From Myxococcales bacterium (GTDB lineage Bacteria > Myxococcota_A > Polyangia > Polyangiales > Houyiibacteriaceae): DNA of 64,000 bases. Positions 18,535-61,431 of this stretch are shown here, in pieces. The notes under the pieces were generated by a model. The model saw only the letters and a list, made by a program, of their open reading frames with translations, made no database searches and was not told where the DNA came from. The translations under genes were made by a program, and so were the position numbers. Where the stretch lies: assembly GCA_029863605.1 (NCBI GenBank), contig JAOTVB010000001.1, positions 160,187 through 224,186 of the forward strand, read 5' to 3'. Each line of letters opens with the position of its first letter. The first letter of the stretch is position 1.

Positions 18535-19914
18535 TCAGAAGACGTACGGGATAAACAAGTACGGGACTTCTTCGCAATAGCGATCCCAGTCCTTTCCGTA
18601 CTTCTTCTTGCACCGCGCGATGTCTCGACCGGCACGATGGAAGATCATGACCGTGAAGAAGGTGACGTAGAGATAGGGGAGAAAGTGATCAAACCCGCAG
18701 ATCAGGCCCCACGAAAGCGCCATCAAGATGTCCGCGGTGTAGTGGATCTTTCGGGCATGGGCCCACCAACCATCGACGAGAAGCTTCGACCCGGCTTCAG
18801 TTTCGAGGTAGCGCGGGTTTTTCAAGGTGCCCCAGGGGAGTTGCGGGAACGCCTTTCGTTTCACGTAGCTTCCGTTGAGTTGCATCCGGAAGCGATTGCG
18901 TTGGCTCTGCGCCGTGTCCCACACGTAATAGGCGCCGATCAATAGAGCGAACACGAAGACCGTGTATGGGACTGAATGCTCGAACGGCGGTCGGGACGCG
19001 ATGTACATCGAGTTGAAACAGTAGACGAAGGGCACGCCTGCGAGGTTCCAGAAGATCAACATCCAGCCCCACTTCTCGTAGAAGATGTCCCAGGTCGTGG
19101 GGATGCACTCTTCGCCCTTCATGCAGGCATTGGTGTAGAGCCAATGCGCCAGGACCATGAAGATCATCGGCGTGCTGACCAACCCGAAGGTTTCGTACTG
19201 GTGGGCGGCGGCGCTCGCGGTCAGCAAGAAGAGCATCAGCCAAGAAACCCGAACTTCGGCCCACATCTTGAGGTCGAGCGGCCCGATCCTCGGATTGAGC
19301 CAGGCGCCCATGAAAAAGTCGTAGAAGAAGCTCCCCGTCATGCGTTCGGCATTGCCCGTGATCTTCGCGCCGAAGTAAATCGCGAACGCCACGATATTCG
19401 CCGAGATCATCGAGACGATCATGAACGAGCCGAACTGGTCGTAGAGCGTTTGCAGTGGAAAGACACCGGTGAGGTGAAGGACTGCCATCGCGGCGAGCGT
19501 GATCCACCAAGCGGAGATCGCATTGCACCGGTAGACCAGTCGTTTGCCTCCGCGTGACGGAATCGGTAGGCCCTTGATTCTGATCCCGGGGAGGTATGCC
19601 GCCATCACTCCTTCGACGAACAGGAACGCCCAGTACATCCCGAATACGCGCCAGCTCGGAGCGGCGTAGGTCACGATCTGTTCCCATGCGCGGGCGAAGA
19701 ACGGGCCGATGTCGGCGAAGCCCGCCGGATGAAAGATGGCCCCTTCGTGGAACCGCCAGGCCATCCACAGGTAAAGCATCAACCCGTGCGAGACGGTCAT
19801 GAGCAGAGCGGCGCCGATCGTGCCTCCAAACTCACGAGTCGCTTCGCCCTTTTTGGCGGCTGCGGTGGGTGCAGCAGTTGGAGCCTGCAGTTTCGACCTC
19901 ATCGCCTTCTGCAT
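18535..19914 (-). CDS. ERG4/ERG24-family sterol reductase homolog
   Basis: 459-aa polytopic membrane protein. FYDFFMGAWLNPRIGPLDLKMWAEVR and the C-terminal signature LLVDGWWAHARKIHYTADILMALSWGL…FHRAGRDIARCKKKYGKDWDRYCEEVPYLFIPYVF match the eukaryotic sterol reductase family. Confidence 0.9.
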   Translation of the reverse strand: MQKAMRSKLQAPTAAPTAAAKKGEATREFGGTIGAALLMTVSHGLMLYLWMAWRFHEGAIFHPAGFADIGPFFARAWEQIVTYAAPSWRVFGMYWAFLFVEGVMAAYLPGIRIKGLPIPSRGGKRLVYRCNAISAWWITLAAMAVLHLTGVFPLQTLYDQFGSFMIVSMISANIVAFAIYFGAKITGNAERMTGSFFYDFFMGAWLNPRIGPLDLKMWAEVRVSWLMLFLLTASAAAHQYETFGLVSTPMIFMVLAHWLYTNACMKGEECIPTTWDIFYEKWGWMLIFWNLAGVPFVYCFNSMYIASRPPFEHSVPYTVFVFALLIGAYYVWDTAQSQRNRFRMQLNGSYVKRKAFPQLPWGTLKNPRYLETEAGSKLLVDGWWAHARKIHYTADILMALSWGLICGFDHFLPYLYVTFFTVMIFHRAGRDIARCKKKYGKDWDRYCEEVPYLFIPYVF

Positions 19915-20031: not shown

Positions 20032-20904
20032 ATGCACGCCATGGACGCAGGCGAGTGGCAGAAGCGGGGACAGATGCACCGGGTCGGTCAGCACGAATTG
20101 TTCTGCGTCGACACCGGTGGGGACAAACCGGTGCTTCTCATTCTCCACGGATACCCTACGAGCAGCTATGACTACTGGCGTTCGCTGCCGATTCTAGCCG
20201 AACACTACCGCGTGATCGTCCACGACCACCTGGGGTTCGGGTTCTCGGACAAGCCGCACGACTATTCGTACTCGCTGGTGGACCAGGCGGATTACGCGAT
20301 CGCGCTCTGGCGGGAGCTGGGCGTTACCGAGGCCGACGTTCTAGGACATGACTACGGCTCGAGCGTCGCCACCGAGCTCTTGGCCCGACGCAATTTCGGC
20401 TCTGAGCCGATCAAGCTTCGCTCCCTCACCCTGTGCAACGGCAGCATGCACATCGAGCTCGCGAATCTGCGGATCATGCAGCGCCTGCTCAAGGCGCCGC
20501 GGGTCGGCTCGGTTGTCGCTCGGCTTGCCAGCGAGCCTCTGTTCCATCGCAACATTCGCAAGATCTTCGCTGACCCGTCGTTTCTGGACGAGCAAGAGCT
20601 CAATGCCATGTGGAGTCAGCTCATCGGCGGCGGTGGCCGGGATGTGCTCCCGGTGATCACGCGACACATCGACGAGCGTTACAGGCTCTGGCACCGGTGG
20701 ATCGGCGCGTTACGCGACACGAACCTTCACATCCACATCGTGTGGGCGCGCCAGGACCCGGTTGCCGTGGAGAAAATGGCTCACGTTCTCCACGACGAGA
20801 TCGCCAATAGCGACCTACAGTTGCTCGATGGGGTCGGGCACTTTCCGATGATCGAGGCCGCCGAGCGCTGGTCTGCTGCCGTGCTGTCCGTGTTGCGGCG
20901 CTAG
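20032..20904 (+). CDS. alpha/beta-fold hydrolase
   Basis: LILHGYPTSSYDYWRSL (oxyanion HG), nucleophile elbow VLGHDYGSSVA, and a C-terminal GHFPMIE His motif. Confidence 0.85.
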   Translation: MHAMDAGEWQKRGQMHRVGQHELFCVDTGGDKPVLLILHGYPTSSYDYWRSLPILAEHYRVIVHDHLGFGFSDKPHDYSYSLVDQADYAIALWRELGVTEADVLGHDYGSSVATELLARRNFGSEPIKLRSLTLCNGSMHIELANLRIMQRLLKAPRVGSVVARLASEPLFHRNIRKIFADPSFLDEQELNAMWSQLIGGGGRDVLPVITRHIDERYRLWHRWIGALRDTNLHIHIVWARQDPVAVEKMAHVLHDEIANSDLQLLDGVGHFPMIEAAERWSAAVLSVLRR

Positions 20905-23411
20905 TCGCCAATCGAGATCAAGCTCAATCGGGGTGCGCCGGCTTGGCGACTTGCATCGAGGTCGACTCGTACCGCCATCCGCCAGCTTCGATCGTTTTGG
21001 GGGTCGCGCAAAATTTGGGTGAAAGCCCATGCGGTCTCGCCGCGCTCGACGTCGATCTCTTTGGTGCTCCGCGCGTCGGGTCCGATCTGAATCTCATCGT
21101 ACTCGGCCCAGTAGCTTGCCAAAGCCTCGCGCAGCCGATCGGCATCCCAGTTGTCGTCCCCCGAGTCGACGAGCGCCTCGGCGGCGCGATCGTAGTGCTT
21201 GAAAGCGAGCAAACGCACGATCTTCCAGACTGCGTTCCGCACCATCGTCGTGAAGCCCCGGACGTCTTTGGTGATATCGGGCGGCTCATCGCTTTCACGC
21301 TCCGGTATGGGCGCGCCCGGTTCGATCGGTGCCTGGAGCTGCTCCCATTCGGCGAGCAGGCTCGCGTCGACGTAGCGTACCGAAAGCCCCAACCAGTCGC
21401 AGAGATCGTACAGTGCATCGGTCTTGGCAGATTCGGGGACGGTTTGAACTAGCGCCTTGTAGCTGTCGGTAAGATACCGGAGCAACACGCCTTCGGACCT
21501 CTGAAGGCCGTACTCCTTCACATATTCGACGAACGTCATGCCGAGCTCGTACATATCGCGGGCAATCGATTTCGGCCGAAGAATGTCGTTCCCGACCCAC
21601 GGATGCCGCTTCGCGAAGATGTCGAATGTCCCATACAGAAACTCTTCGTTGGGTTTCGGGTAGTCGATCTTTTCGAGCTCTTCCATGCGTTGGTCGTACT
21701 CCATGCCCTCGGCTTTCATCGCGGAGATGGCACGCGACTTCAGGATATCGGTTTGCCGATAGAGAATGGCCATCGGGTCTTCGAGGGTCGCTTCGACCAG
21801 GGTCAAGACGTCGAGCGCGTAGGCCGGGTCCTCAGGCTCGAGCACTTCGACCGCCTCGACGACATAGAGGGAGAGTGCCTGGTTGAGCGAGAAGTCCGAC
21901 TGGAAATCTTCATGGACCCGCGGACCGTCGCGATCGAGCTCGACGACCCCCGCGTCGCGAAGCGATCGGATCATCGCGATCGCGTTTCGTGCGTGCCGTC
22001 GCTTCGCAGTTGGGCCTTCGTGACTCTTTCGAATTAGCGTTCGAAGCGCCAGGCATCCATCGTCCTCGCGTTCGAAGAGGTTGAGGATCATCGCGTTGCT
22101 CACGACAAATCGCGATCTGAGCGGTTCCGGGTCCGAGTCTCGTAGACGGACGAAGGTGTCGGCATCCCAATGGGCATAGCCCCGTTCTGGGGGCTGGCGC
22201 ATCTTGAGCTTTCGAAGCTTCTTCTGGTCGTCACCTGCCTTGGCGCGAAGCTTCTTGTTCTCGATCGCATGGTCCGGTGCCTGCGCGACCACGCTGCCCA
22301 GCGTGTCGTATCCACGGCGGCCGGCCCGACCGGCGATCTGCTTGAAATCGCGGACCGTCAAGACCTTGGTGCCCTGTCCATCGTACTTGCAGAGCTTGGT
22401 GAAGAGCACCGTTCGAATGGGTACATTGACACCGACACCGAGCGTATCGGTCCCACAGATCACGCGGAGCGTTCCCTGTTGCGCGAGCCGTTCCACCAGG
22501 CGCCGGTACCGCGGCAGCATTCCTGCGTGGTGCACCCCGATCCCGTGGTGCAGAAACTTCTTGAGCTCCTTGCCGAACGGCGTGTCGAATCGCGTCTGGC
22601 GCAGCTCCTCCTTCATCGCCTTCTTCTGGTCCTTCGACAGGAAGTCGATGCTCATGAAGCTCTGCGCCTGCTCAGTCGCGGCTCGTTGCGCGAAGTGCAC
22701 GACGTACATGGGGGCCTTGCCGTCATCGAGCAGCTCGACGACCGTGTTGTGTAGGGGTTGCTCGGCGTAATCGAAATCGAGCGGAACGGGCCGGTCGGTG
22801 CTCTTGACCAACGTCGTTTGGACACCGGTAAGCTCGGTGACCGCCTCCTCGAACATCCGCGTGTCCCCGAGTGTGGCGCTCATCAACAAAAACCGCGCCT
22901 GTGGCAGGGTCAGTAGCGGGACCTGCCACGCTACCCCGCGGTCTCTGTCCGAATAATAGTGGAACTCGTCCATGACCACGCTGTCGACCTCAGCCCGTTC
23001 GCCCTCGCGGAGCGCCAGGTTCGAGAGGATCTCCGCCGTGCAACAGATCACCGGGGCATCGCGGTTGACGGTCGCATCGCCAGTCATCATCCCGACCCGC
23101 TGCGCGCCAAGCACGCGACAAAGGTCGAAGAACTTCTCACTCACCAACGCTTTGATAGGCGCTGTGTAGAAGGATCGTTCGCCGAGCGCGATCGATCGAA
23201 AGTGCATCGCCAACGCGACCAGTGACTTCCCGGAGCCCGTCGGCGTGTTGAGAATCACGTTGTTGCCGACGAAGAGCTCCATCACCGCCTCTTCTTGGGC
23301 GGGGTAGAGCTCGATTCCCTGGTCCGACACGTACTCGACGAACCGCATCAGCAGCGCATCGGGATCGACATCGGAGCCGAGCTCGTCGAGGTAGTGGTCA
23401 AGCGAAGCCAA
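20901..23411 (-). CDS. DEAD/DEAH-box (Ski2-like) helicase with long C-terminal domain (DUF3516-like)
   Basis: NTPTGSGKS (motif I), VVMDEFHYY (motif II), MSATLG (motif III), HHAGMLP and GRAGRRG (motif VI). 836 aa. Confidence 0.9.
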   Translation of the reverse strand: MASLDHYLDELGSDVDPDALLMRFVEYVSDQGIELYPAQEEAVMELFVGNNVILNTPTGSGKSLVALAMHFRSIALGERSFYTAPIKALVSEKFFDLCRVLGAQRVGMMTGDATVNRDAPVICCTAEILSNLALREGERAEVDSVVMDEFHYYSDRDRGVAWQVPLLTLPQARFLLMSATLGDTRMFEEAVTELTGVQTTLVKSTDRPVPLDFDYAEQPLHNTVVELLDDGKAPMYVVHFAQRAATEQAQSFMSIDFLSKDQKKAMKEELRQTRFDTPFGKELKKFLHHGIGVHHAGMLPRYRRLVERLAQQGTLRVICGTDTLGVGVNVPIRTVLFTKLCKYDGQGTKVLTVRDFKQIAGRAGRRGYDTLGSVVAQAPDHAIENKKLRAKAGDDQKKLRKLKMRQPPERGYAHWDADTFVRLRDSDPEPLRSRFVVSNAMILNLFEREDDGCLALRTLIRKSHEGPTAKRRHARNAIAMIRSLRDAGVVELDRDGPRVHEDFQSDFSLNQALSLYVVEAVEVLEPEDPAYALDVLTLVEATLEDPMAILYRQTDILKSRAISAMKAEGMEYDQRMEELEKIDYPKPNEEFLYGTFDIFAKRHPWVGNDILRPKSIARDMYELGMTFVEYVKEYGLQRSEGVLLRYLTDSYKALVQTVPESAKTDALYDLCDWLGLSVRYVDASLLAEWEQLQAPIEPGAPIPERESDEPPDITKDVRGFTTMVRNAVWKIVRLLAFKHYDRAAEALVDSGDDNWDADRLREALASYWAEYDEIQIGPDARSTKEIDVERGETAWAFTQILRDPQNDRSWRMAVRVDLDASRQAGAPRLSLISIGD

Positions 23412-23554
23412 TGCGAACCTTCCTGTGCGGGACTCTTAGCAGACCCGGTTTGCGGGTGACCTTTTTGCACGCCCCCCAAGAGTCGATGGCCCGCTGTGGC
23501 ACACATTACGTTGTGAGCCAGCTTGGAATTGCTTCACTTTTCGGCGCTCTTCAC

Positions 23555-23569
23555 TGGCATTCTTGTTGC
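23555..23569 (+). promoter_or_regulatory. candidate sigma-54 promoter (-24 TGGCAT / -12 TTGC)
   Basis: TGGCAT tcttg TTGC has exact GG-N10-GC spacing. It lies 40 nt upstream of ATG 23609 (SD aaaggag), is intergenic and is correctly oriented. Confidence 0.6.
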
Positions 23570-23608
23570 GTACTTCAAGACGCCGGGTATCCGTAAAGGA
23601 GAGTCAAA

Positions 23609-24661
23609 ATGAAGCGTTTTGGGTTTGCATGCGCCCTGCTGGTGGGCACGATTGGTTGCGGTCAAAGCGGCGACGTCGAGGGTCTCGAAGGCTTCGTATG
23701 CGGTACCGACGGTCGCACATACACGGTCGAACAAGCAGCCGAGCGCGATCACGAGGTGGCGCATCGGGGCAAATGCGACGCCCCGATGGGCTGCAGCACG
23801 CCAAGCGACTGCTTTGCGGGTGACGAGTGTAACGCAGACGTTTGTGTTCCCGTCCCAAGTGGTTGTCCTTGCGTAGGAGTCTTCGAACCGGTCTGCGGAG
23901 CCGACGGTCGAACCTACATCAACGCCTGCGAGGCGCGGTGCGTCGACGTCGGGGTCGTGCACCACGGAATGTGCGGGGATGACCCCTGTGCTCTGATCGA
24001 CTGCGCACCCGGGTTCATCTGTGAGCAAGGCCAATGTCTGCCCATCCAAGAGTGCGAGGGCAAGGAGTGCGAGCCCGACGAGATCTGTATCGACTGGCCC
24101 CAACAAGAGCCCGCCTATTGTGTGTGGGTCGGCTGCGACAGCGACGAGCAATGTCGTCGAGGGGAGCGTTGCGTGATCGATGACCCATGTCTCGCCCCGG
24201 CCGTGGTAGGCCCCTGCGACGCCGCGATCCCGAGGTGGTTCTACAACTCCAATACCGGTGAGTGCGAGCAGTTCACGTGGGGCGGTTGCGGTGGCAACGA
24301 CAACAACTTCGAAACTCGAGACGACTGCGAGGCCGCCTGCCCCGATCACGACGTTCCGAAGCTCAGCATCGCGCTTCGAGCCGGTCGCTGCGAGCCTGAT
24401 GTGTTCTGTCCCGAGGGGCGCTACGCACCGGAAATCTACGCGCCGGTTTGCGGAGTAGATGGTGTCACCTACAGCAACCCGTGCGAAGCCGAGCGCGCAG
24501 GTGTCGACATCGCGTACGACGGGGAATGCATCCCAGAAGTCACCTGCGTCGATCGGGGCTGCCCCGAAGGCTGGACGTGTGACTTCTGCCAGACATCCAG
24601 CGGGGCGCGCTACATCTGCTTGTCTCCGCTCGCCGGCGCGTGCTTGCCGCCGAGCGACTGA
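23609..24661 (+). CDS. lipoprotein with Kazal-type domains and one Kunitz/BPTI domain (protease-inhibitor-like)
   Basis: MKRFGFACALLVGTIGC is a signal peptide plus Cys. Kazal cores: CPCVGVFEPVCGADGRTYINACEARC…HHGMC and YAPVCGVDGVTYSNPCEAERAGVDIAYDGEC. The Kunitz domain is CLAPAVVGPCDAAIPRWFYNSNTGECEQFTWGGCGGNDNNFETRDDCEAAC (C-8-C-15-C-7-C-12-C-3-C). Confidence 0.85.
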   Translation: MKRFGFACALLVGTIGCGQSGDVEGLEGFVCGTDGRTYTVEQAAERDHEVAHRGKCDAPMGCSTPSDCFAGDECNADVCVPVPSGCPCVGVFEPVCGADGRTYINACEARCVDVGVVHHGMCGDDPCALIDCAPGFICEQGQCLPIQECEGKECEPDEICIDWPQQEPAYCVWVGCDSDEQCRRGERCVIDDPCLAPAVVGPCDAAIPRWFYNSNTGECEQFTWGGCGGNDNNFETRDDCEAACPDHDVPKLSIALRAGRCEPDVFCPEGRYAPEIYAPVCGVDGVTYSNPCEAERAGVDIAYDGECIPEVTCVDRGCPEGWTCDFCQTSSGARYICLSPLAGACLPPSD

Positions 24662-24689
24662 CGACGAGCCCACGACTCGCATAAGAAAA

Positions 24690-24728
24690 GGACCGACGCC
24701 CGGAGCTTGGCTCGCGGGCTTGGTCCTC
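24690..24728 (+). terminator. candidate intrinsic terminator
   Basis: It lies 30 nt after the stop. Nested GC-rich hairpin: AGGACC…GGTCCT enclosing GCCCGGAGC-ttg-GCTC(g)CGGGC, followed by CTCTTATT. Confidence 0.5.
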
Positions 24729-25016
24729 TTATTGGGCCTTCGATTACTGTCGGAAAGTAGGGCTAGGAAACAACGAGCACCGGGCAAAGAGCAAGAGCGG
24801 GCACCGTTGAGCGGGGTACAGTGTCTCGCCTGACCGTAGGACGGGATGGTGGGCTCATCCTAGGATCTGCACCCCACGCGACCGGTGCCCGCCTTGCATC
24901 GAAGGCACCAACGCGAAGCTAGCGGCCGATGCCGCACAACGGGCGACAAAAGCGGGCACCCAATACGCCAGGTTTTTTCGCGATTCACCCATTGGGCTTG
25001 AAATTGCGGCCCCAGT

Positions 25017-26027
25017 GTGGATCCATCATCAGTCTTGCAAGAAGCATCTGCGAAGCGGAAGCCCCCTCCCAGGGTATCCGGGGCCTGGACGAAGGGCGTC
25101 GTGTACGCGTTTCGGCGGCTGGGGCTCGACGTCGAGGAGCTGTGCGCCTCGATCGGCGTCGATATCGAGGTCTTCTTGGACACTACCGGTCGCCCAGCCC
25201 GCGATGCTTCAGGCCGCCTCTGGCGAGCAGCTCTCGTCCAGAGCGGTGATCGATTCCTCGGCCTGAACGCTGCCGAGGTCTGGGAGGCTCGGGTCGACCA
25301 TCTGGTCTTTCTGCTGCTTTTGAGCGCGGACACGTTTGGCGAAGGGCTCACGGCCGGCATTCGGTTTCAAGAGCTCCTCTCCCATGGGCGAGTCCTCACC
25401 TTTGGCGAGCATCCCAAGCACCATGCGCTTCATATCAACAGGATCGAGCACGAGCTTCCTGTGCTGGCGCACGAGGTCGAGTTCCTCGCTGCGATCTTGA
25501 CGAAGCTTTTTCGGTTTGCCACCGACGATGCGTTTGTCCTGGAGGAGGTCCACTTCGAGCATCCCTACCGGGGCAGCATAGAGAAGTACAGCCGCGCGTT
25601 TCGGACTACGGTGCTCTTCGGACAGAGCCGGAACACCCTGCTGATCGGCGACGATTCGTGGAACCTCAGCCTCGCGCATGGCAATCAGGTGCTCCACCGC
25701 GAGCTTCGCGGCATCGCGGCGGGGCTTCACGCGGGACATCCGGACCGTAGCTTCCTCGACAGCGTTCGCCACCGCATCAAGGGCCTTCTCCCCAAGGGCA
25801 ACTGCGGCGTCGAACCCGTGGCCACTGCGCTTCACATGACTCCTCGAACGCTACAACGACGCCTCCAAGAAGACGGCACCACTTTTCGCGCCCTCGTGGA
25901 CGCCACCCGAAAGTCGATCGTCCTCGACGGTGTGGAACGCCACCAGGCTCCAGAGGAAATCGTCCGCCACGCGGGCTTCACCAATCCCCGAAGCTTTCGC
26001 CGGGCGATGAAACGCTGGAATCTCTAG
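25017..26027 (+). CDS. AraC family transcriptional regulator
   Basis: C-terminal AraC-type dual HTH (VEPVATALHMTPRTLQRRLQEDGTTFRALVDATRKSIV… EEIVRHAGFTNPRSFRRAMKRW). The N-terminal region resembles the Arabinose_bd-type ligand domain. The start (GTG 25017) is uncertain. Confidence 0.85.
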   Translation: MDPSSVLQEASAKRKPPPRVSGAWTKGVVYAFRRLGLDVEELCASIGVDIEVFLDTTGRPARDASGRLWRAALVQSGDRFLGLNAAEVWEARVDHLVFLLLLSADTFGEGLTAGIRFQELLSHGRVLTFGEHPKHHALHINRIEHELPVLAHEVEFLAAILTKLFRFATDDAFVLEEVHFEHPYRGSIEKYSRAFRTTVLFGQSRNTLLIGDDSWNLSLAHGNQVLHRELRGIAAGLHAGHPDRSFLDSVRHRIKGLLPKGNCGVEPVATALHMTPRTLQRRLQEDGTTFRALVDATRKSIVLDGVERHQAPEEIVRHAGFTNPRSFRRAMKRWNL

Positions 26028-45231: not shown

Positions 45232-47769
45232 ATGCACGAGTCACTATCTTTCCGTAGCGCCATCGCGCTCTTCCTTGCCTTCTGGCTTGCTGCCTGCGGT
45301 GGCAGTGCCACCGACCCCCAGGTGGAGGCGACTTTCGAAGTCGATCCAACCGTGGAGCCGAACGCCGACGCGATTTCGTTCGTCGACGACACCGGCTCGC
45401 GCCCGCTCGCCTCGATCGTCGACGGACAAGGCCGTCAGATCGACTTCGTCGAGGACGAAGTGATCCTGACGCTCGACGACCGCGACGCGTTGCCCGCCAT
45501 CCTCGAGCGGCTTCACGGCACAGTCATCCGCGAGGTCGACCCGAACGCCACGGGCTTGTTGAGCGAACCTTCGCCGATCTTCGTTCTACTTCGGGTTAAC
45601 CCCCCCGATGCCGAAGCTTCGGACCTCGCCGAGCTCATCATGGCGCAAGGCGAAAACGGAGGCCAGCACCGCGTGTCTTCTCAAAAAGGGCTCAACACAC
45701 TGATGGCGATGGCACGCGAGAGTGTGAACGAAGGGACCGACCTCGGTGCCAACTTCTTGTTCACCTACGATGAGCTGAGTGATCGCGAGACTGCGGAGTC
45801 TCCCTCGGGCGACGCGTCGGGCTATTCAGCGAACGCGTTCGAGCTTCCATACATGAACCGAGGTTCTCGGCAGGACATCGGCGCCGCCGAGGCCGCTCGG
45901 ATGGTTCACGAAGCGGTCGGAGTGCCGACCGGGCGCAATCGCGTCGACTTCATGATCATGGACGGTGGATTCCTAAACATCCCGGACTACCCGGGAGCGG
46001 AGATCATCCCGCGGGGCCGTTTCTCTCGAATCAATCCCCCGAACTCGTGCTCTGGCGGCGGTGATTGCCCCTGGCACGGGACGAACGTTGCGTCTGCCGC
46101 GCTCGGCGTGTTCGATGACAACATCGGTGCTGCGGGCCCGGCCGCAGAGGTCGTGAATCCGATCTTCGTGCAAAGCCCCCGACCCAACCTCTGGGACTAT
46201 CTCGACTACGTCTTCGACACCGTACCAAGCGCCCTTGGCCGCTTCCCCGACATCGTGAACATCTCCGCGTCGGGCGACATTCCGGCGGGGCTTTGCCTCG
46301 TCGGCGTCTGCACGGCGGTCGACGTGGTGGGCCGCTCGGTTCGCGCGGCGGGCATCCTCGTGTTCGCCTCGGCCGGGAACGATGGTGCCAACGTCGATAG
46401 TCGAGACTGCGGACCCTTCGGCCTCGTCTGCTGGGAAGGGGCATACCGCGTTCCTTGCGAGGCGCCGGGCGTCATCTGCGTCGGCGGTCTTCAGCATGAT
46501 CGCGACACGAAGGCGACGAACAGCGCGACGGGCTCGAAGCAGCGCGACTCGCGCGACTCCGTCGACGTCTATGCCCCTTACTCCGTGTGGGTTCATGACA
46601 CGCCCACCAGGGGGGCAGGTCTCGTCCCGCCCACTACGAGCGCAACGCTCAAGAACGGCACTTCGTTTGCGTCTCCCTTCGCTGCTGGGATTGCTGCGCT
46701 GATCAAGGCCGCCAGTCCGCGCCTCGGCCCGGGTGAGATTTGGGAGATCATGCGAGACACGGCGCACACCAAAGCAAGAGGCTCGGTTCACCGCTGGGTG
46801 AATGCCCAAGGGGCCGTCCAACGTGCCCTTGGTGGAGCGCCGCCCTTCGTCCGGATCGAGAGGCCCACGGCCGACGAACGATTCTCGATCGGGGGCAGCG
46901 TGCCGCTCAGCTGTGACGTGCAAGACGACGACGGCATGGACGACGTGACGGTGGCGTGGGCGAGCGATCTCGATGGCAGCATCGGTGCGGCGTCCTCGTT
47001 CACCAGCGCAACGCGCCTTCGCTCGGGTGTGCACGAGATCACGTGTACCGCGACCGACGGTCGCTTCACCGTGAGCGATAGCGTCCAGATCTCGGTTGGC
47101 AACGAGGCTCCGACGGTCGTGATCACTGCACCAACGGGTTCCGACCCTCTGTACACTGGCAACGCGATCGCTGTGACCGCGGACGCCTACGACGTCGACG
47201 CGAACCTCGACGATGTCTATTGGCAGGTGATCAACGACTTCGGTTTCCCGACGGGGTGGACGGCCACGGGCCGTGAAGCGACGATCCCGAGGGGTCACCT
47301 GGCGCCAGGCCGATACACGCTGGTCGCGACCGCCTACGACACGGAGGGTGAGCGAGCGCAGGATACGAGGAGGCTCGTCATTCAGGCGAACCCCAGCAAC
47401 CTCGGCCCGAGCATCAACAGCTTGTCCGCCATCGCGACGCCAACCGACCCGTATGACACCGACCTGGCATACTGGGCCGACGCCTGCACGTTCGACGTGA
47501 ACGGAGATGGCCGGGTCGACGGGGCCGACCTCTGCCAGCGCCTCCGTTTCGTCGCCGACGTCACCGATGATCACGATCCAGTGAGCGCGTTGACGTTCCA
47601 GTGGAACGTCTACGAAGAAGGCGTCCTCGTCGACTCCTTCATGACCAGCACCCCAACCATCACGCTCGACTTCGAAATAGGACAACACTCGATCGAGCTC
47701 GTCGCGTCGGACACGGAATCCGCGTCGAGTCAGCGAGCTCTCAGCGTCACGGTCATTACCCTGTTCTAG
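45232..47769 (+). CDS. S8 family (subtilisin-like) serine peptidase lipoprotein with C-terminal Ig/PKD-like modules
   Basis: MHESLSFRSAIALFLAFWLAAC is a lipobox. Catalytic motifs: FMIMDGG (Asp), WHGTNVASAALG (His) and NGTSFASPFAAGIAALI (Ser). At least three C-terminal beta modules (…GVHEITCTATDGRFTVSDSVQISV…). Confidence 0.9.
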   Translation: MHESLSFRSAIALFLAFWLAACGGSATDPQVEATFEVDPTVEPNADAISFVDDTGSRPLASIVDGQGRQIDFVEDEVILTLDDRDALPAILERLHGTVIREVDPNATGLLSEPSPIFVLLRVNPPDAEASDLAELIMAQGENGGQHRVSSQKGLNTLMAMARESVNEGTDLGANFLFTYDELSDRETAESPSGDASGYSANAFELPYMNRGSRQDIGAAEAARMVHEAVGVPTGRNRVDFMIMDGGFLNIPDYPGAEIIPRGRFSRINPPNSCSGGGDCPWHGTNVASAALGVFDDNIGAAGPAAEVVNPIFVQSPRPNLWDYLDYVFDTVPSALGRFPDIVNISASGDIPAGLCLVGVCTAVDVVGRSVRAAGILVFASAGNDGANVDSRDCGPFGLVCWEGAYRVPCEAPGVICVGGLQHDRDTKATNSATGSKQRDSRDSVDVYAPYSVWVHDTPTRGAGLVPPTTSATLKNGTSFASPFAAGIAALIKAASPRLGPGEIWEIMRDTAHTKARGSVHRWVNAQGAVQRALGGAPPFVRIERPTADERFSIGGSVPLSCDVQDDDGMDDVTVAWASDLDGSIGAASSFTSATRLRSGVHEITCTATDGRFTVSDSVQISVGNEAPTVVITAPTGSDPLYTGNAIAVTADAYDVDANLDDVYWQVINDFGFPTGWTATGREATIPRGHLAPGRYTLVATAYDTEGERAQDTRRLVIQANPSNLGPSINSLSAIATPTDPYDTDLAYWADACTFDVNGDGRVDGADLCQRLRFVADVTDDHDPVSALTFQWNVYEEGVLVDSFMTSTPTITLDFEIGQHSIELVASDTESASSQRALSVTVITLF

Positions 47770-60381: not shown

Positions 60382-61431
60382 ATGAAACGAGTTTGCCTAG
60401 CCATCATCGCTGTCACGGTGGGCCTTTGGGGTTGTGGCGGGGCCGGGGAAGCTCTCGGCACCGAGGGGTTCATCTGCAGCATCGAGGGGAACACCTACAC
60501 GCTCAAAGAGGCGGCTGAAGGGGGACACGAGGCCCGGCACCGCGGTCGATGCGACGATCCGATGTACTGCGAGGCGCCGACCGATTGCTTCGTCGGTGAC
60601 CGGTGTATGCCGACGGTCGCCCCGGCAGACGAAGGGGGAGCAGGGTTGCTTGCGAATGAACCCGTCCCGCACTGGTGTGTTCCTGGCCCTACGCACTGCA
60701 ACTGTCCCACCGTGTACCAACCGGTCTGCGGCACGGATGGCCGCAACTACGTAAGCGCGTGTGAAGCCGCCTGCGCCGGGGTAAGCATTGCGCACGAAGG
60801 GTATTGCGAGGAACCGCCTGGAGCTGCCTGCGTCCGCGGTGGATGCAGCGGGCAACTCTGCGTCGAAGAGGGTATGGACATCGCCAGCACGTGCGAGTGG
60901 CGCCCCGTGTACCAGTGCTACCAAGAAGCCACTTGTGAGCGTCAGCTCAACGGACAGTGCGGATTCACGCCCACACACGAGCTGGTCGAGTGCCTCGAGC
61001 AGTTCGGCGAGTGCCAAAGCAACGACGACTGCCCGGGCCGCTTGATCTGCTACCCGCCGACCAAGACCTGCCAGCCGAGCTGCGAGATCTACTGCTTCCG
61101 GTATGACCCGGTGTGCGGGACGGACGGCGTCACCTACGCTTGTGGCGTCGCCGATGCGCACTGCCATGGCGTCGAGGTCGCGTATGAGGGGGAGTGTATC
61201 CCGGGTCCGATGTGCGGTGGCTTCAACACGGGCACATGCGCAGACCCAAGCCTGAGCTGCGAGTGCTGCCCAATCGGCGGTCCCGCACAGAGCTGTCTCT
61301 GCTCGACGCCCTGCCACAGTGATGACGACTGCACTGATTCGAGCCGGCCGACATGCAACCGGCCCGACTTCGTCGGTTCGACGGGCTTTTGCGCTCCGGC
61401 AGCGTTCCAGTGCTGCTGGTTCTGTTTCTGA
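60382..61431 (+). CDS. lipoprotein with Kazal-type domains and an eight-cysteine module (paralog of 23609..24661)
   Basis: Trimmed to ATG 60382: MKRVCLAIIAVTVGLWGC. Kazal cores: CNCPTVYQPVCGTDGRNYVSACEAACAGVSIAHEGYC and CFRYDPVCGTDGVTYACGVADAHCHGVEVAYEGEC. The N-terminal 60 aa are colinear with protein 23609. Confidence 0.85.
   Translation: MKRVCLAIIAVTVGLWGCGGAGEALGTEGFICSIEGNTYTLKEAAEGGHEARHRGRCDDPMYCEAPTDCFVGDRCMPTVAPADEGGAGLLANEPVPHWCVPGPTHCNCPTVYQPVCGTDGRNYVSACEAACAGVSIAHEGYCEEPPGAACVRGGCSGQLCVEEGMDIASTCEWRPVYQCYQEATCERQLNGQCGFTPTHELVECLEQFGECQSNDDCPGRLICYPPTKTCQPSCEIYCFRYDPVCGTDGVTYACGVADAHCHGVEVAYEGECIPGPMCGGFNTGTCADPSLSCECCPIGGPAQSCLCSTPCHSDDDCTDSSRPTCNRPDFVGSTGFCAPAAFQCCWFCF

Follow-up and report, generated by a model that had tools for sequence, protein, structure and literature searches.

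A Kunitz/BPTI domain set between Kazal units in a predicted myxococcal lipoprotein, with an invariant aspartate at P1

Kunitz/BPTI domains are among the best-studied protein domains, and are usually regarded as an animal invention against trypsin-like enzymes. Inhibitors such as BPTI and APP (PF00014, MEROPS I2) have Lys or Arg at the P1 position. In vertebrates, WFIKKN1/2 carry a Kunitz domain and a follistatin/Kazal unit in one chain, together with WAP, Ig, and netrin (NTR) domains. Note that WFIKKN acts mainly through GDF8/11 binding. Here, we describe a gene that joins Kunitz and Kazal sequences in a bacterium. The gene occupies positions 23609 to 24661, on the forward strand, of a 64,000 nucleotide stretch of DNA (hereafter, the window) from contig JAOTVB010000001.1, assigned to a Myxococcales bacterium. 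With it, two classic inhibitor families gain a bacterial variant that is so far uncharacterised. Judging by its sequence, we lean towards a lipid-anchored, disulfide-rich, multi-headed envelope protease inhibitor, not directed at trypsin, with two heads that may be directed at Glu/Asp-specific enzymes. New here are the invariant Asp at the Kunitz P1 position, the 72% share of acidic P1 residues among bacterial Kunitz domains, the P1 residues of units Kazal-3 and Kazal-2, and the insertion of the Kunitz domain as a cassette. The features of the gene are as follows.

23609..24661, +: complete gene for a Cys-rich predicted lipoprotein of 350 residues plus stop codon, with 40 Cys beyond the lipobox Cys (open reading frame translation)
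23597..23601, +: Shine-Dalgarno sequence AGGAG, 7 nt 5' of the ATG (direct sequence reading)
23609..23659, +: signal peptide and lipobox T14-I15-G16-C17 (PROSITE PS51257-type pattern applied by eye, alignment)
23693..23776, +: minimal Kazal-like unit (Kazal-1), residues 29-56, with only the Cys3-Cys6 pair and lacking a reactive-site loop
23792..23845, +: four-Cys hairpin, residues 62-79, C-x5-C-x5-C-x4-C (phmmer, Foldseek)
23864..23974, +: Kazal-2, residues 86-122, non-classical CxC type (best PDB match LDTI, E 3e-9)
23987..24172, +: three short Cys-rich hairpin modules, residues 127-188, a variable cassette region (alignments; predicted local distance difference test score, pLDDT, 55-70)
24188..24340, +: Kunitz/BPTI domain, residues 194-244 (Pfam 76.1 bits, Foldseek)
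24218..24220, +: Kunitz P1 codon, Asp204, in G201-P-C-D-A-A (alignment to BPTI Lys15)
24389..24529, +: Kazal-3, residues 261-307, five Cys (matches to agrin, ovomucoid, and follistatin among PDB sequences)
24545..24643, +: C-terminal six-Cys module, residues 313-345, common to Kunitz-less paralogues (alignments)

The initial annotation of this DNA had proposed a textbook Kunitz domain, and profile, pattern, and structural comparisons all bear this out. In a regular expression search, residues 194-244 fit exactly the spacing C-x8-C-x15-C-x7-C-x12-C-x3-C, and all six Cys are invariant in orthologues. The Pfam match to Kunitz_BPTI scores 76.1 bits, against a cutoff of 21 (E 2.4e-21), and spans profile positions 2-52 of 53. 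The motifs GPCDAAIPRWFYNSNTGEC and FTWGGCGGNDNNFET are present, and the canonical loop determinants are all intact (G201-P-C, Ala at P1', G225-G226-C, and N232-N233-F). Searching the PDB with the Kunitz segment, using phmmer, returned SmCI, boophilin, TFPI, HAI-1, bikunin, WFIKKN1, and BPTI. Domain E-values were between 1e-10 and 1e-15 for SmCI, boophilin, TFPI, HAI-1, and BPTI. The second Kunitz domain of WFIKKN1 (2ddi) was also among the best matches (E 6e-15, 52% identity). At full length, SmCI and boophilin gave the best PDB sequence matches (1e-31 to 4e-39, summed over domains). However, these are soluble metazoan proteins made of tandem Kunitz domains only.

An AlphaFold2 (AF2) model, built from 16 sequences, was of moderate quality overall (mean pLDDT 68, predicted template modelling score 0.32). 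Foldseek superposed its Kunitz part on APPI, HAI-2, TFPI-2, and BPTI, with target-normalised template modelling (TM) scores of 0.9-0.96 and root mean square deviations of 0.5-1.0 Å; for APPI, HAI-2, and BPTI alone, the values were 0.92-0.96 and 0.6-1.0 Å. Thus, structure prediction, suggested as a check in the initial annotation, returned the Kunitz fold. The Foldseek targets include structures of inhibitor-protease complexes, as well as BPTI P1 variants. Given such close superposition, with all Cys aligned, the disulfides would probably pair 1-6, 2-4, and 3-5. The segments either side of the Kunitz domain both hold odd numbers of Cys, with three in residues 176-188 (C176, C182, and C188) and eleven in residues 261-345. 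Because of this, we speculate that at least one disulfide may span the domain and join its flanks. Such a bridge would be geometrically easy, since the Kunitz termini are close together.

In sum of likeness, the domain shares with BPTI and APP the six-Cys spacing, the GPC...A...RW/YFYN core, and the GGCGGN.NNF second loop, at 45-49% identity. It differs in its bacterial host, in its setting between Kazal units of a lipoprotein, and in having Asp, rather than Lys or Arg, at P1. Both D204 and A205 are invariant across 16 orthologues, while A206 is nearly so.

Acidic P1 residues proved common in bacteria. We surveyed one genome per GTDB species (185,579 genomes) for the peptide pattern [WY]GGC[GE]GNxN, of which P1 is not part. 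The survey found 179 Kunitz-coding stretches, a minimum count, given that it relied on a single narrow peptide pattern. We kept 79 loci, with 85 Kunitz open reading frames (ORFs) and 144 Kunitz domains of canonical spacing. P1 was Asp in 77 of these domains, Glu in 26, Arg in 13, and Leu in 8, so that 72% are acidic. Domains sharing as little as 47-57% identity with the query are part of this census. The commonest loop motif is GPCDAAIPRW. Where a bacterial protein has several Kunitz domains, P1 changes from one to the next (D, E, R, L, Q, K, T). In the few eukaryotic relatives retrieved, P1 is mostly Arg or Lys (R, R, K, Y, R in tapeworm P0027; K, D in Ulva; R, K, D in a protist).

Most of the loci kept belong to Myxococcota, namely Polyangiales, Polyangiaceae, Nannocystaceae, Bradymonadia, and several complete chromosomes of cultured Sorangium. 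The others are from Acidobacteriota, Candidatus Binatia, Planctomycetota (Phycisphaerales), Bacteroidota (Saprospiraceae, Chitinophagales), and one Streptomyces. The latter, Streptomyces sp. NPDC050659 (NZ_JBFAIK010000028.1; locus L045), is a cultured actinomycete. It encodes a single Kunitz domain, with Ser at P1 and 55% identity to the query, and is an isolated occurrence beyond Gram-negative phyla. A lipobox is found at a candidate start in 48 of the 85 ORFs, Sorangium genes included. Separately, P0013 (locus L016, Acidobacteriota), P0033, P0050, and P0068 have two extra Cys, one at P3' (GPCDGVCPRW) and one in the second loop (WGCCGGN). In such domains the extra pair probably forms a fourth disulfide, linking both binding loops. 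P0013 has nine tandem Kunitz domains.

The initial annotation considered fusion of Kunitz and Kazal domains in a bacterial protein unusual. The data suggest that such fusions are indeed rare across bacteria as a whole (at least 179 Kunitz stretches among the 185,579 genomes), but recur in a few lineages where they are visible in databases. Of the 85 Kunitz ORFs, 29 or more have a strict Kazal core motif. About ten of these are orthologous to the window gene, and among the others are giant proteins in which 3-4 Kunitz domains accompany 9-10 Kazal units (L013, L018). Architectures confirmed by Pfam comprise one Kazal and four Kunitz domains in P0024, and two Kazal and four Kunitz domains in P0028. 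Some orthologues are already named in NCBI annotation. We found no study of bacterial or myxobacterial Kunitz proteins in the literature searched; a 2010 review by Kantyka, Rawlings, and Potempa, which likely lists them, lay outside that search.

The N-terminus of the window protein satisfies the lipobox pattern [LIVMFWSTAG](2)-[LIVMFYSTAGCQ]-[AGS]-C at position 15-35, with K2 and R3 upstream of G13-T14-I15-G16-C17. This matches PS51257 and, in agreement with the lipobox Cys proposed initially, G16-C17 is invariant in 16 orthologues. The protein had also been called surface-anchored. Anchoring as a lipoprotein is what the sequence indicates; surface placement goes further, since the sequence points to the lipid anchor alone.

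All of the Kazal content proposed initially was recovered, as one truncated and two fuller units. Pfam reported Kazal_1 at 41.4 bits (cutoff 21) and Kazal_2 at 40.7 bits (cutoff 22.8), the latter over 3 stretches; a match to Kazal_CFAI was below threshold. Among the three Kazal_2 stretches, one probably corresponds to Kazal-1, which contains the motif FVCGTDGRTY...RGKC and is modelled as beta-beta-alpha-beta (pLDDT about 80-86). The PDB sequence matches of Kazal-1 are weak (follistatin, E 0.017). Kazal-2 has the full set of six Cys (C86, C88, C96, C107, C111, and C122) and the core PVCGxDGxTYxNxC. Alignment to LDTI Lys8 and OMTKY3 Leu18 places Gly90 at P1 of its reactive loop, which reads C88(P3)-V-G90(P1)-V-F-E-P-V-C96. 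The loop is kept, as C-x-G-V/L-F-E/D-P-V-C, in orthologues and in paralogues of about 50% identity. Assignment of Asp to the Kunitz P1 and Gly to the Kazal-2 P1, residues unlike those of trypsin inhibitors, was made in the initial annotation and agrees with our alignments.

Kazal-3 is less regular. Arg296 stands at the Cys5 position, and 13 residues, instead of 7, separate Cys2 from Cys3, with a 6-residue insert (PEGRYA) after C267 that duplicates a Pro-Glu pair. In orthologues free of the insert, the loop reads C-[PTL]-[ED]-I-Y-x-P-V-C; in paralogues it reads C-[LPA]-[DE]-I-Y. Since these loops have [ED] or [DE] at P1, we take the P1 residue of Kazal-3 to be acidic. Furthermore, because the insert repeats Pro-Glu, P1 would be Glu in either register (E269 or E275). 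Kazal-1 and Kazal-3 are hence Kazal-derived but atypical, and neither has the full six-Cys set. Overall, 16 orthologues (61-84% identity) and the paralogues of about 50% identity keep both the lipobox G16-C17 and the loops of the Kazal units. In the orthologues, Asp204 is also conserved.

The region between Kazal-2 and the Kunitz domain is variable. Some orthologues have an extra Kazal domain, or lack a module, and paralogues have a different module. One such paralogue is in the window.

60382..61431, +: paralogue, a 349-residue Cys-rich predicted lipoprotein without a Kunitz domain (BLASTP 34% identity, E 8e-40)

Its order is lipobox, minimal Kazal, hairpin plus Kazal, and then a different middle module (Kazal_2, 27.8 bits in Pfam). 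More widely, there is a family of Kazal-only lipoproteins, with the same N- and C-terminal scaffold and a different middle module. Comparison of these sequences indicates that the Kunitz domain is a cassette within a larger Kazal-lipoprotein family. The Kazal loop of the window paralogue is C-N-C-P-T-V-Y-Q-P-V-C, with Thr at P1. Precomputed annotation also places a Pfam family, PF27854, on Kunitz-less relatives P0040, P0055, P0060, and others.

The modules outside the Kunitz domain each resemble known systems. Kazal-2 is like LDTI and rhodniin, the non-classical Kazal inhibitors (MEROPS I1), in its C-x-C start, 7-residue loop, and PVCGxDGRTYxNxCxARC core. It is unlike them in having Gly, not Lys or His, at P1, and in being one module of a 350-residue lipoprotein. 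Together, the hairpin and Kazal-2 (residues 62-122) have the Cys count and order of a 10-Cys follistatin-like (FS) unit. In phmmer searches, follistatin FS domains align with residues 11-57 of a 69-residue segment (approximately residues 67-113 of the protein) with E-values from 3e-4 to 1e-3. Foldseek also returned follistatin (E 6e-6), but with a low TM score, and Pfam gave no match to a FOLN domain in the 350-residue protein. The likeness to FS arrays of follistatin and agrin is in having, in tandem, a short four-Cys hairpin and then a Kazal subdomain. Those arrays, however, are metazoan and mostly non-inhibitory. Whole-chain TM scores of 0.1-0.2 mean that modules alone match, not their arrangement. 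With WFIKKN, the common feature is a follistatin/Kazal unit and a Kunitz domain in one chain. Conversely, WFIKKN proteins are secreted and metazoan, have WAP, Ig, and NTR domains in another order, and have no lipid anchor. Ecotin, alpha-2-macroglobulin lipoproteins, and Omp19, a Brucella lipoprotein, share the envelope-guarding role proposed here. Their folds and mechanisms are unrelated, and no homology is implied. One report (PMC9486555) presents Omp19 as a protease inhibitor of bacterial origin.

Our proposal for the window protein is as follows. After Sec export, the protein would be lipidated at Cys17 and then undergo oxidative folding in the periplasm. It would present up to three heads that act by the standard (Laskowski-type) mechanism, one Kunitz/BPTI and two Kazal, alongside a Kazal remnant that lacks the loop and a number of small, Cys-rich hairpins acting as spacers. 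Each head would plug the active site of a target endopeptidase with a rigid, substrate-like loop. The Kunitz (Asp) and Kazal-3 (Glu) heads would be aimed at Glu/Asp-specific serine endopeptidases. The Kazal-2 (Gly) head might act on an enzyme whose S1 pocket is very small, or might be silent. The role would be shielding the envelope of a protease-secreting, predatory bacterium. P1 residues of Asp, Glu, and Gly exclude trypsin- or chymotrypsin-like targets. Asp at P1 is unfavourable for trypsin or chymotrypsin in studies of BPTI P1 variants. Equally, Asp at the Kunitz P1 and Glu at the Kazal-3 P1 argue for Glu/Asp-specific serine endopeptidases. Since the reactive sites are invariant, a conserved target, either the cell's own enzyme or one regularly met, is more likely than a partner in an arms race. 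Plausibly, the target is a secreted or periplasmic enzyme of the cell itself.

The gene is native to a bacterial chromosome. Its start is sound, given the AGGAG at 7 nt and an N-terminus (MKRFGF...) common to orthologues. A scan found no sigma-70 promoter at the gene, and terminator-like sites were at chance level. A search of NCBIfam, with the 350-residue protein, matched no model. In public metagenomes, there is an identical protein (P0001) and approximately 18 full-length orthologues, with 54-100% identity and the same Pfam set. Their source metagenome-assembled genomes (MAGs) are labelled Deltaproteobacteria, Myxococcota, or Polyangiales. The gene is flanked as follows.

20901..23411, -: DEAD-box helicase with DUF3516, divergent neighbour and syntenic flank, with no evident functional link (Pfam, synteny)
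25017..26027, +: AraC-family regulator, downstream syntenic flank (Pfam Arabinose_bd and HTH_18, synteny)

According to blastn, the order of helicase (-), inhibitor gene (+), and AraC regulator (+) is kept in 8 related contigs (L001, L002, L003, L004, L005, L012, L015, and L065) of 69-88% nucleotide identity. The nearest, from a "Myxococcales bacterium" MAG, is 88% identical across 9.4 kb. Because orthologues and this gene order recur across an uncultured Myxococcota clade, the gene is older than diversification of the clade, and has been inherited vertically on the chromosome.

We also considered an artefact, such as contaminating eukaryotic DNA, a chimeric assembly, or a Cys-rich ORF arising by chance where GC content is high. 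Such a worry is prompted by the mainly metazoan distribution of Kunitz domains, and by a long ORF on the opposite strand (23534..24787, -) that overlaps the gene. We give this negligible weight. The GC content of the gene (0.60-0.63) is that of its flanks, and the window mean is 0.623. A Shine-Dalgarno sequence precedes it, and its product carries a bacterial lipobox. The gene order is shared by eight independent MAG or metagenome contigs, Kunitz genes occur in complete Sorangium chromosomes, and the hidden Markov model (HMM) E-value of the Kunitz domain is 2e-21. Contamination, misassembly, and recent transfer are thus ruled out by GC content, Shine-Dalgarno sequence, lipobox, and synteny. 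The antisense ORF, of 417 codons, was itself rejected as a gene; it is unsupported, and such a spurious frame is expected at 62% GC.

Whether the protein inhibits proteases, or does something else with the same modules, is a closer matter. In favour of an inhibitor, the solved structures nearest in sequence belong to genuine inhibitors (SmCI, boophilin, TFPI, HAI-1, BPTI, and LDTI). The Pfam scores, the superposition on inhibitor-protease complexes, the intact Kunitz loop, the conserved lipobox and reactive sites, the prevalence of acidic P1 residues and of lipoboxes among bacterial Kunitz proteins, and the two subtilase genes next to Kunitz plus Kazal genes in one distant MAG count on the same side. 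By analogy, the differing P1 residues of multi-Kunitz bacterial proteins resemble those of genuine multi-headed inhibitors. In work by Komiyama et al., from 1991, Glu at P1 reportedly made OMTKY3 a strong inhibitor of the Glu-specific protease of Streptomyces griseus. Several observations weigh on the other side. In P1-variant series attributed to Laskowski and to Otlewski, Asp and Gly are said to be among the weakest P1 residues for all standard serine proteases. Kazal-1 is loop-less, while Kazal-3 is one disulfide short and has a 6-residue loop insert. A non-inhibitory binding surface would likewise show invariant reactive sites. We found no inhibition data for any bacterial Kunitz protein in the literature searched. 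No peptidase gene is adjacent, either at the locus or in syntenic relatives. Finally, an S1 motif was absent from approximately 820 kb of flanks at the 79 bacterial Kunitz loci, in a scan for S1 and S8 enzymes that was crude, using relaxed motifs rather than HMMs (stricter motifs missed even the S8 gene of the window).

The same observations lend some credit to a non-inhibitory scaffold, in which stable disulfide-rich modules bind a ligand in the envelope or outside the cell, as with follistatin, agrin, SPARC, the collagen VI C5 domain, and dendrotoxins. We regard this as possible but doubtful. It fits with P1 residues (Asp, Gly, Glu) that are poor for common proteases, loops that are invariant and not hypervariable, a Kazal-1 without its loop, a Kazal-3 without Cys5, and the want of a neighbouring protease gene at the locus or in syntenic relatives. 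In addition, FS domains of follistatin, agrin, and SPARC are among the Foldseek and phmmer matches, and the four-Cys hairpin with its Kazal domain mimics a 10-Cys FS unit. Against this, every canonical determinant of the Kunitz loop is retained, P1 varies between domains of multi-Kunitz bacterial proteins as in real multi-headed inhibitors, and the closest sequence relatives of solved structure are bona fide inhibitors. A quite different idea is that the protein acts on eukaryotes, as a toxin-like effector or inhibitor of host proteases, with the gene acquired from an animal or alga and used on grazers or hosts. The Kunitz domain is 45-55% identical to those of tick, sea anemone, human, and tapeworm, there are algal and protist relatives (P0026 from Ulva, P0092 from MMETSP), and isolate names suggest that the MAGs are from sediment or sand. 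Even so, we consider such an effector improbable, because of the lipid anchor and the acidic P1. The lipobox would tether the protein to the envelope of its producer, with no release, and Asp at P1 is unsuited to the trypsin-like digestive and immune proteases of animals. Moreover, the gene is old, syntenic, vertically inherited, and native in GC content.

Returning to inhibition, we considered the proteases that might be controlled. The initial annotation had named an S8 peptidase in the window as an enzyme to assay.

45232..47769, +: S8 subtilase, with Big_7 and PKD domains (Pfam, 73.9 bits)

The gene does encode a subtilase. As an operon partner it was rejected; it is 20 kb away, and is absent from the ±10 kb flanks of two orthologues. 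In those flanks, and by blastn of the eight loci, the only constant neighbours are the DUF3516 helicase and the AraC regulator. The N-terminus of the S8 subtilase is lipobox-like (LAFWLAACGGS), and so this enzyme may itself be a lipoprotein. By the relaxed motif scan, flanks of the 79 Kunitz loci contain only two S8 genes, both in one MAG. In this Myxococcota genome (IP29b_bin.29), a large S8 subtilase gene is followed by a Kunitz plus Kazal gene, on the same strand, in each of two contigs (L037:1089-6888 and L040:492-7128). Both subtilases have an I9 propeptide and a PA domain, and the MAG is distant from the window organism. This hints that, in some lineages, subtilases may be targets of Kunitz plus Kazal proteins.

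A broader view, which we think less likely than not, is that bacterial Kunitz domains are a prokaryote-adapted branch, mostly with Asp or Glu at P1 and often in lipoproteins, that would act on a class of enzyme unaddressed by animal Kunitz domains. Myxococcota hold most of its members and at least five other phyla have some; its targets might be Glu/Asp-specific serine endopeptidases or even a non-serine enzyme. If so, the window protein, two of whose heads (the Kunitz and one Kazal) have an acidic P1, would serve specifically to guard the envelope against such an enzyme. This would also bear on the origin of the 'metazoan' Kunitz domain.

In any event, the locus and its relatives represent a sizeable and uncharacterised set of bacterial Kunitz proteins, often lipid-anchored by prediction, often fused to Kazal domains, and usually with an acidic P1. 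Should they be active inhibitors, they would form a new specificity class for a classic scaffold, could provide selective inhibitors of Glu/Asp-specific bacterial proteases, and would add a layer of protease control in predatory, protease-secreting bacteria. Should they not be, a classic inhibitor fold has been turned to another purpose. Experiments are feasible because cultured Sorangium strains have related genes, among them the predicted Kunitz lipoprotein genes of loci L059 and L060 in So ce1099. In either case, bacterial and animal Kunitz domains are about 50% identical, and how they are related in evolution merits a proper phylogeny.

One further observation concerns the vicinity of the gene. 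An ORF at 18535-19914 (-) has 80% nucleotide identity to a gene of locus L001 for which Pfam reports ERG4_ERG24, a sterol reductase family. This agrees with the known biosynthesis of sterols by Myxococcota.

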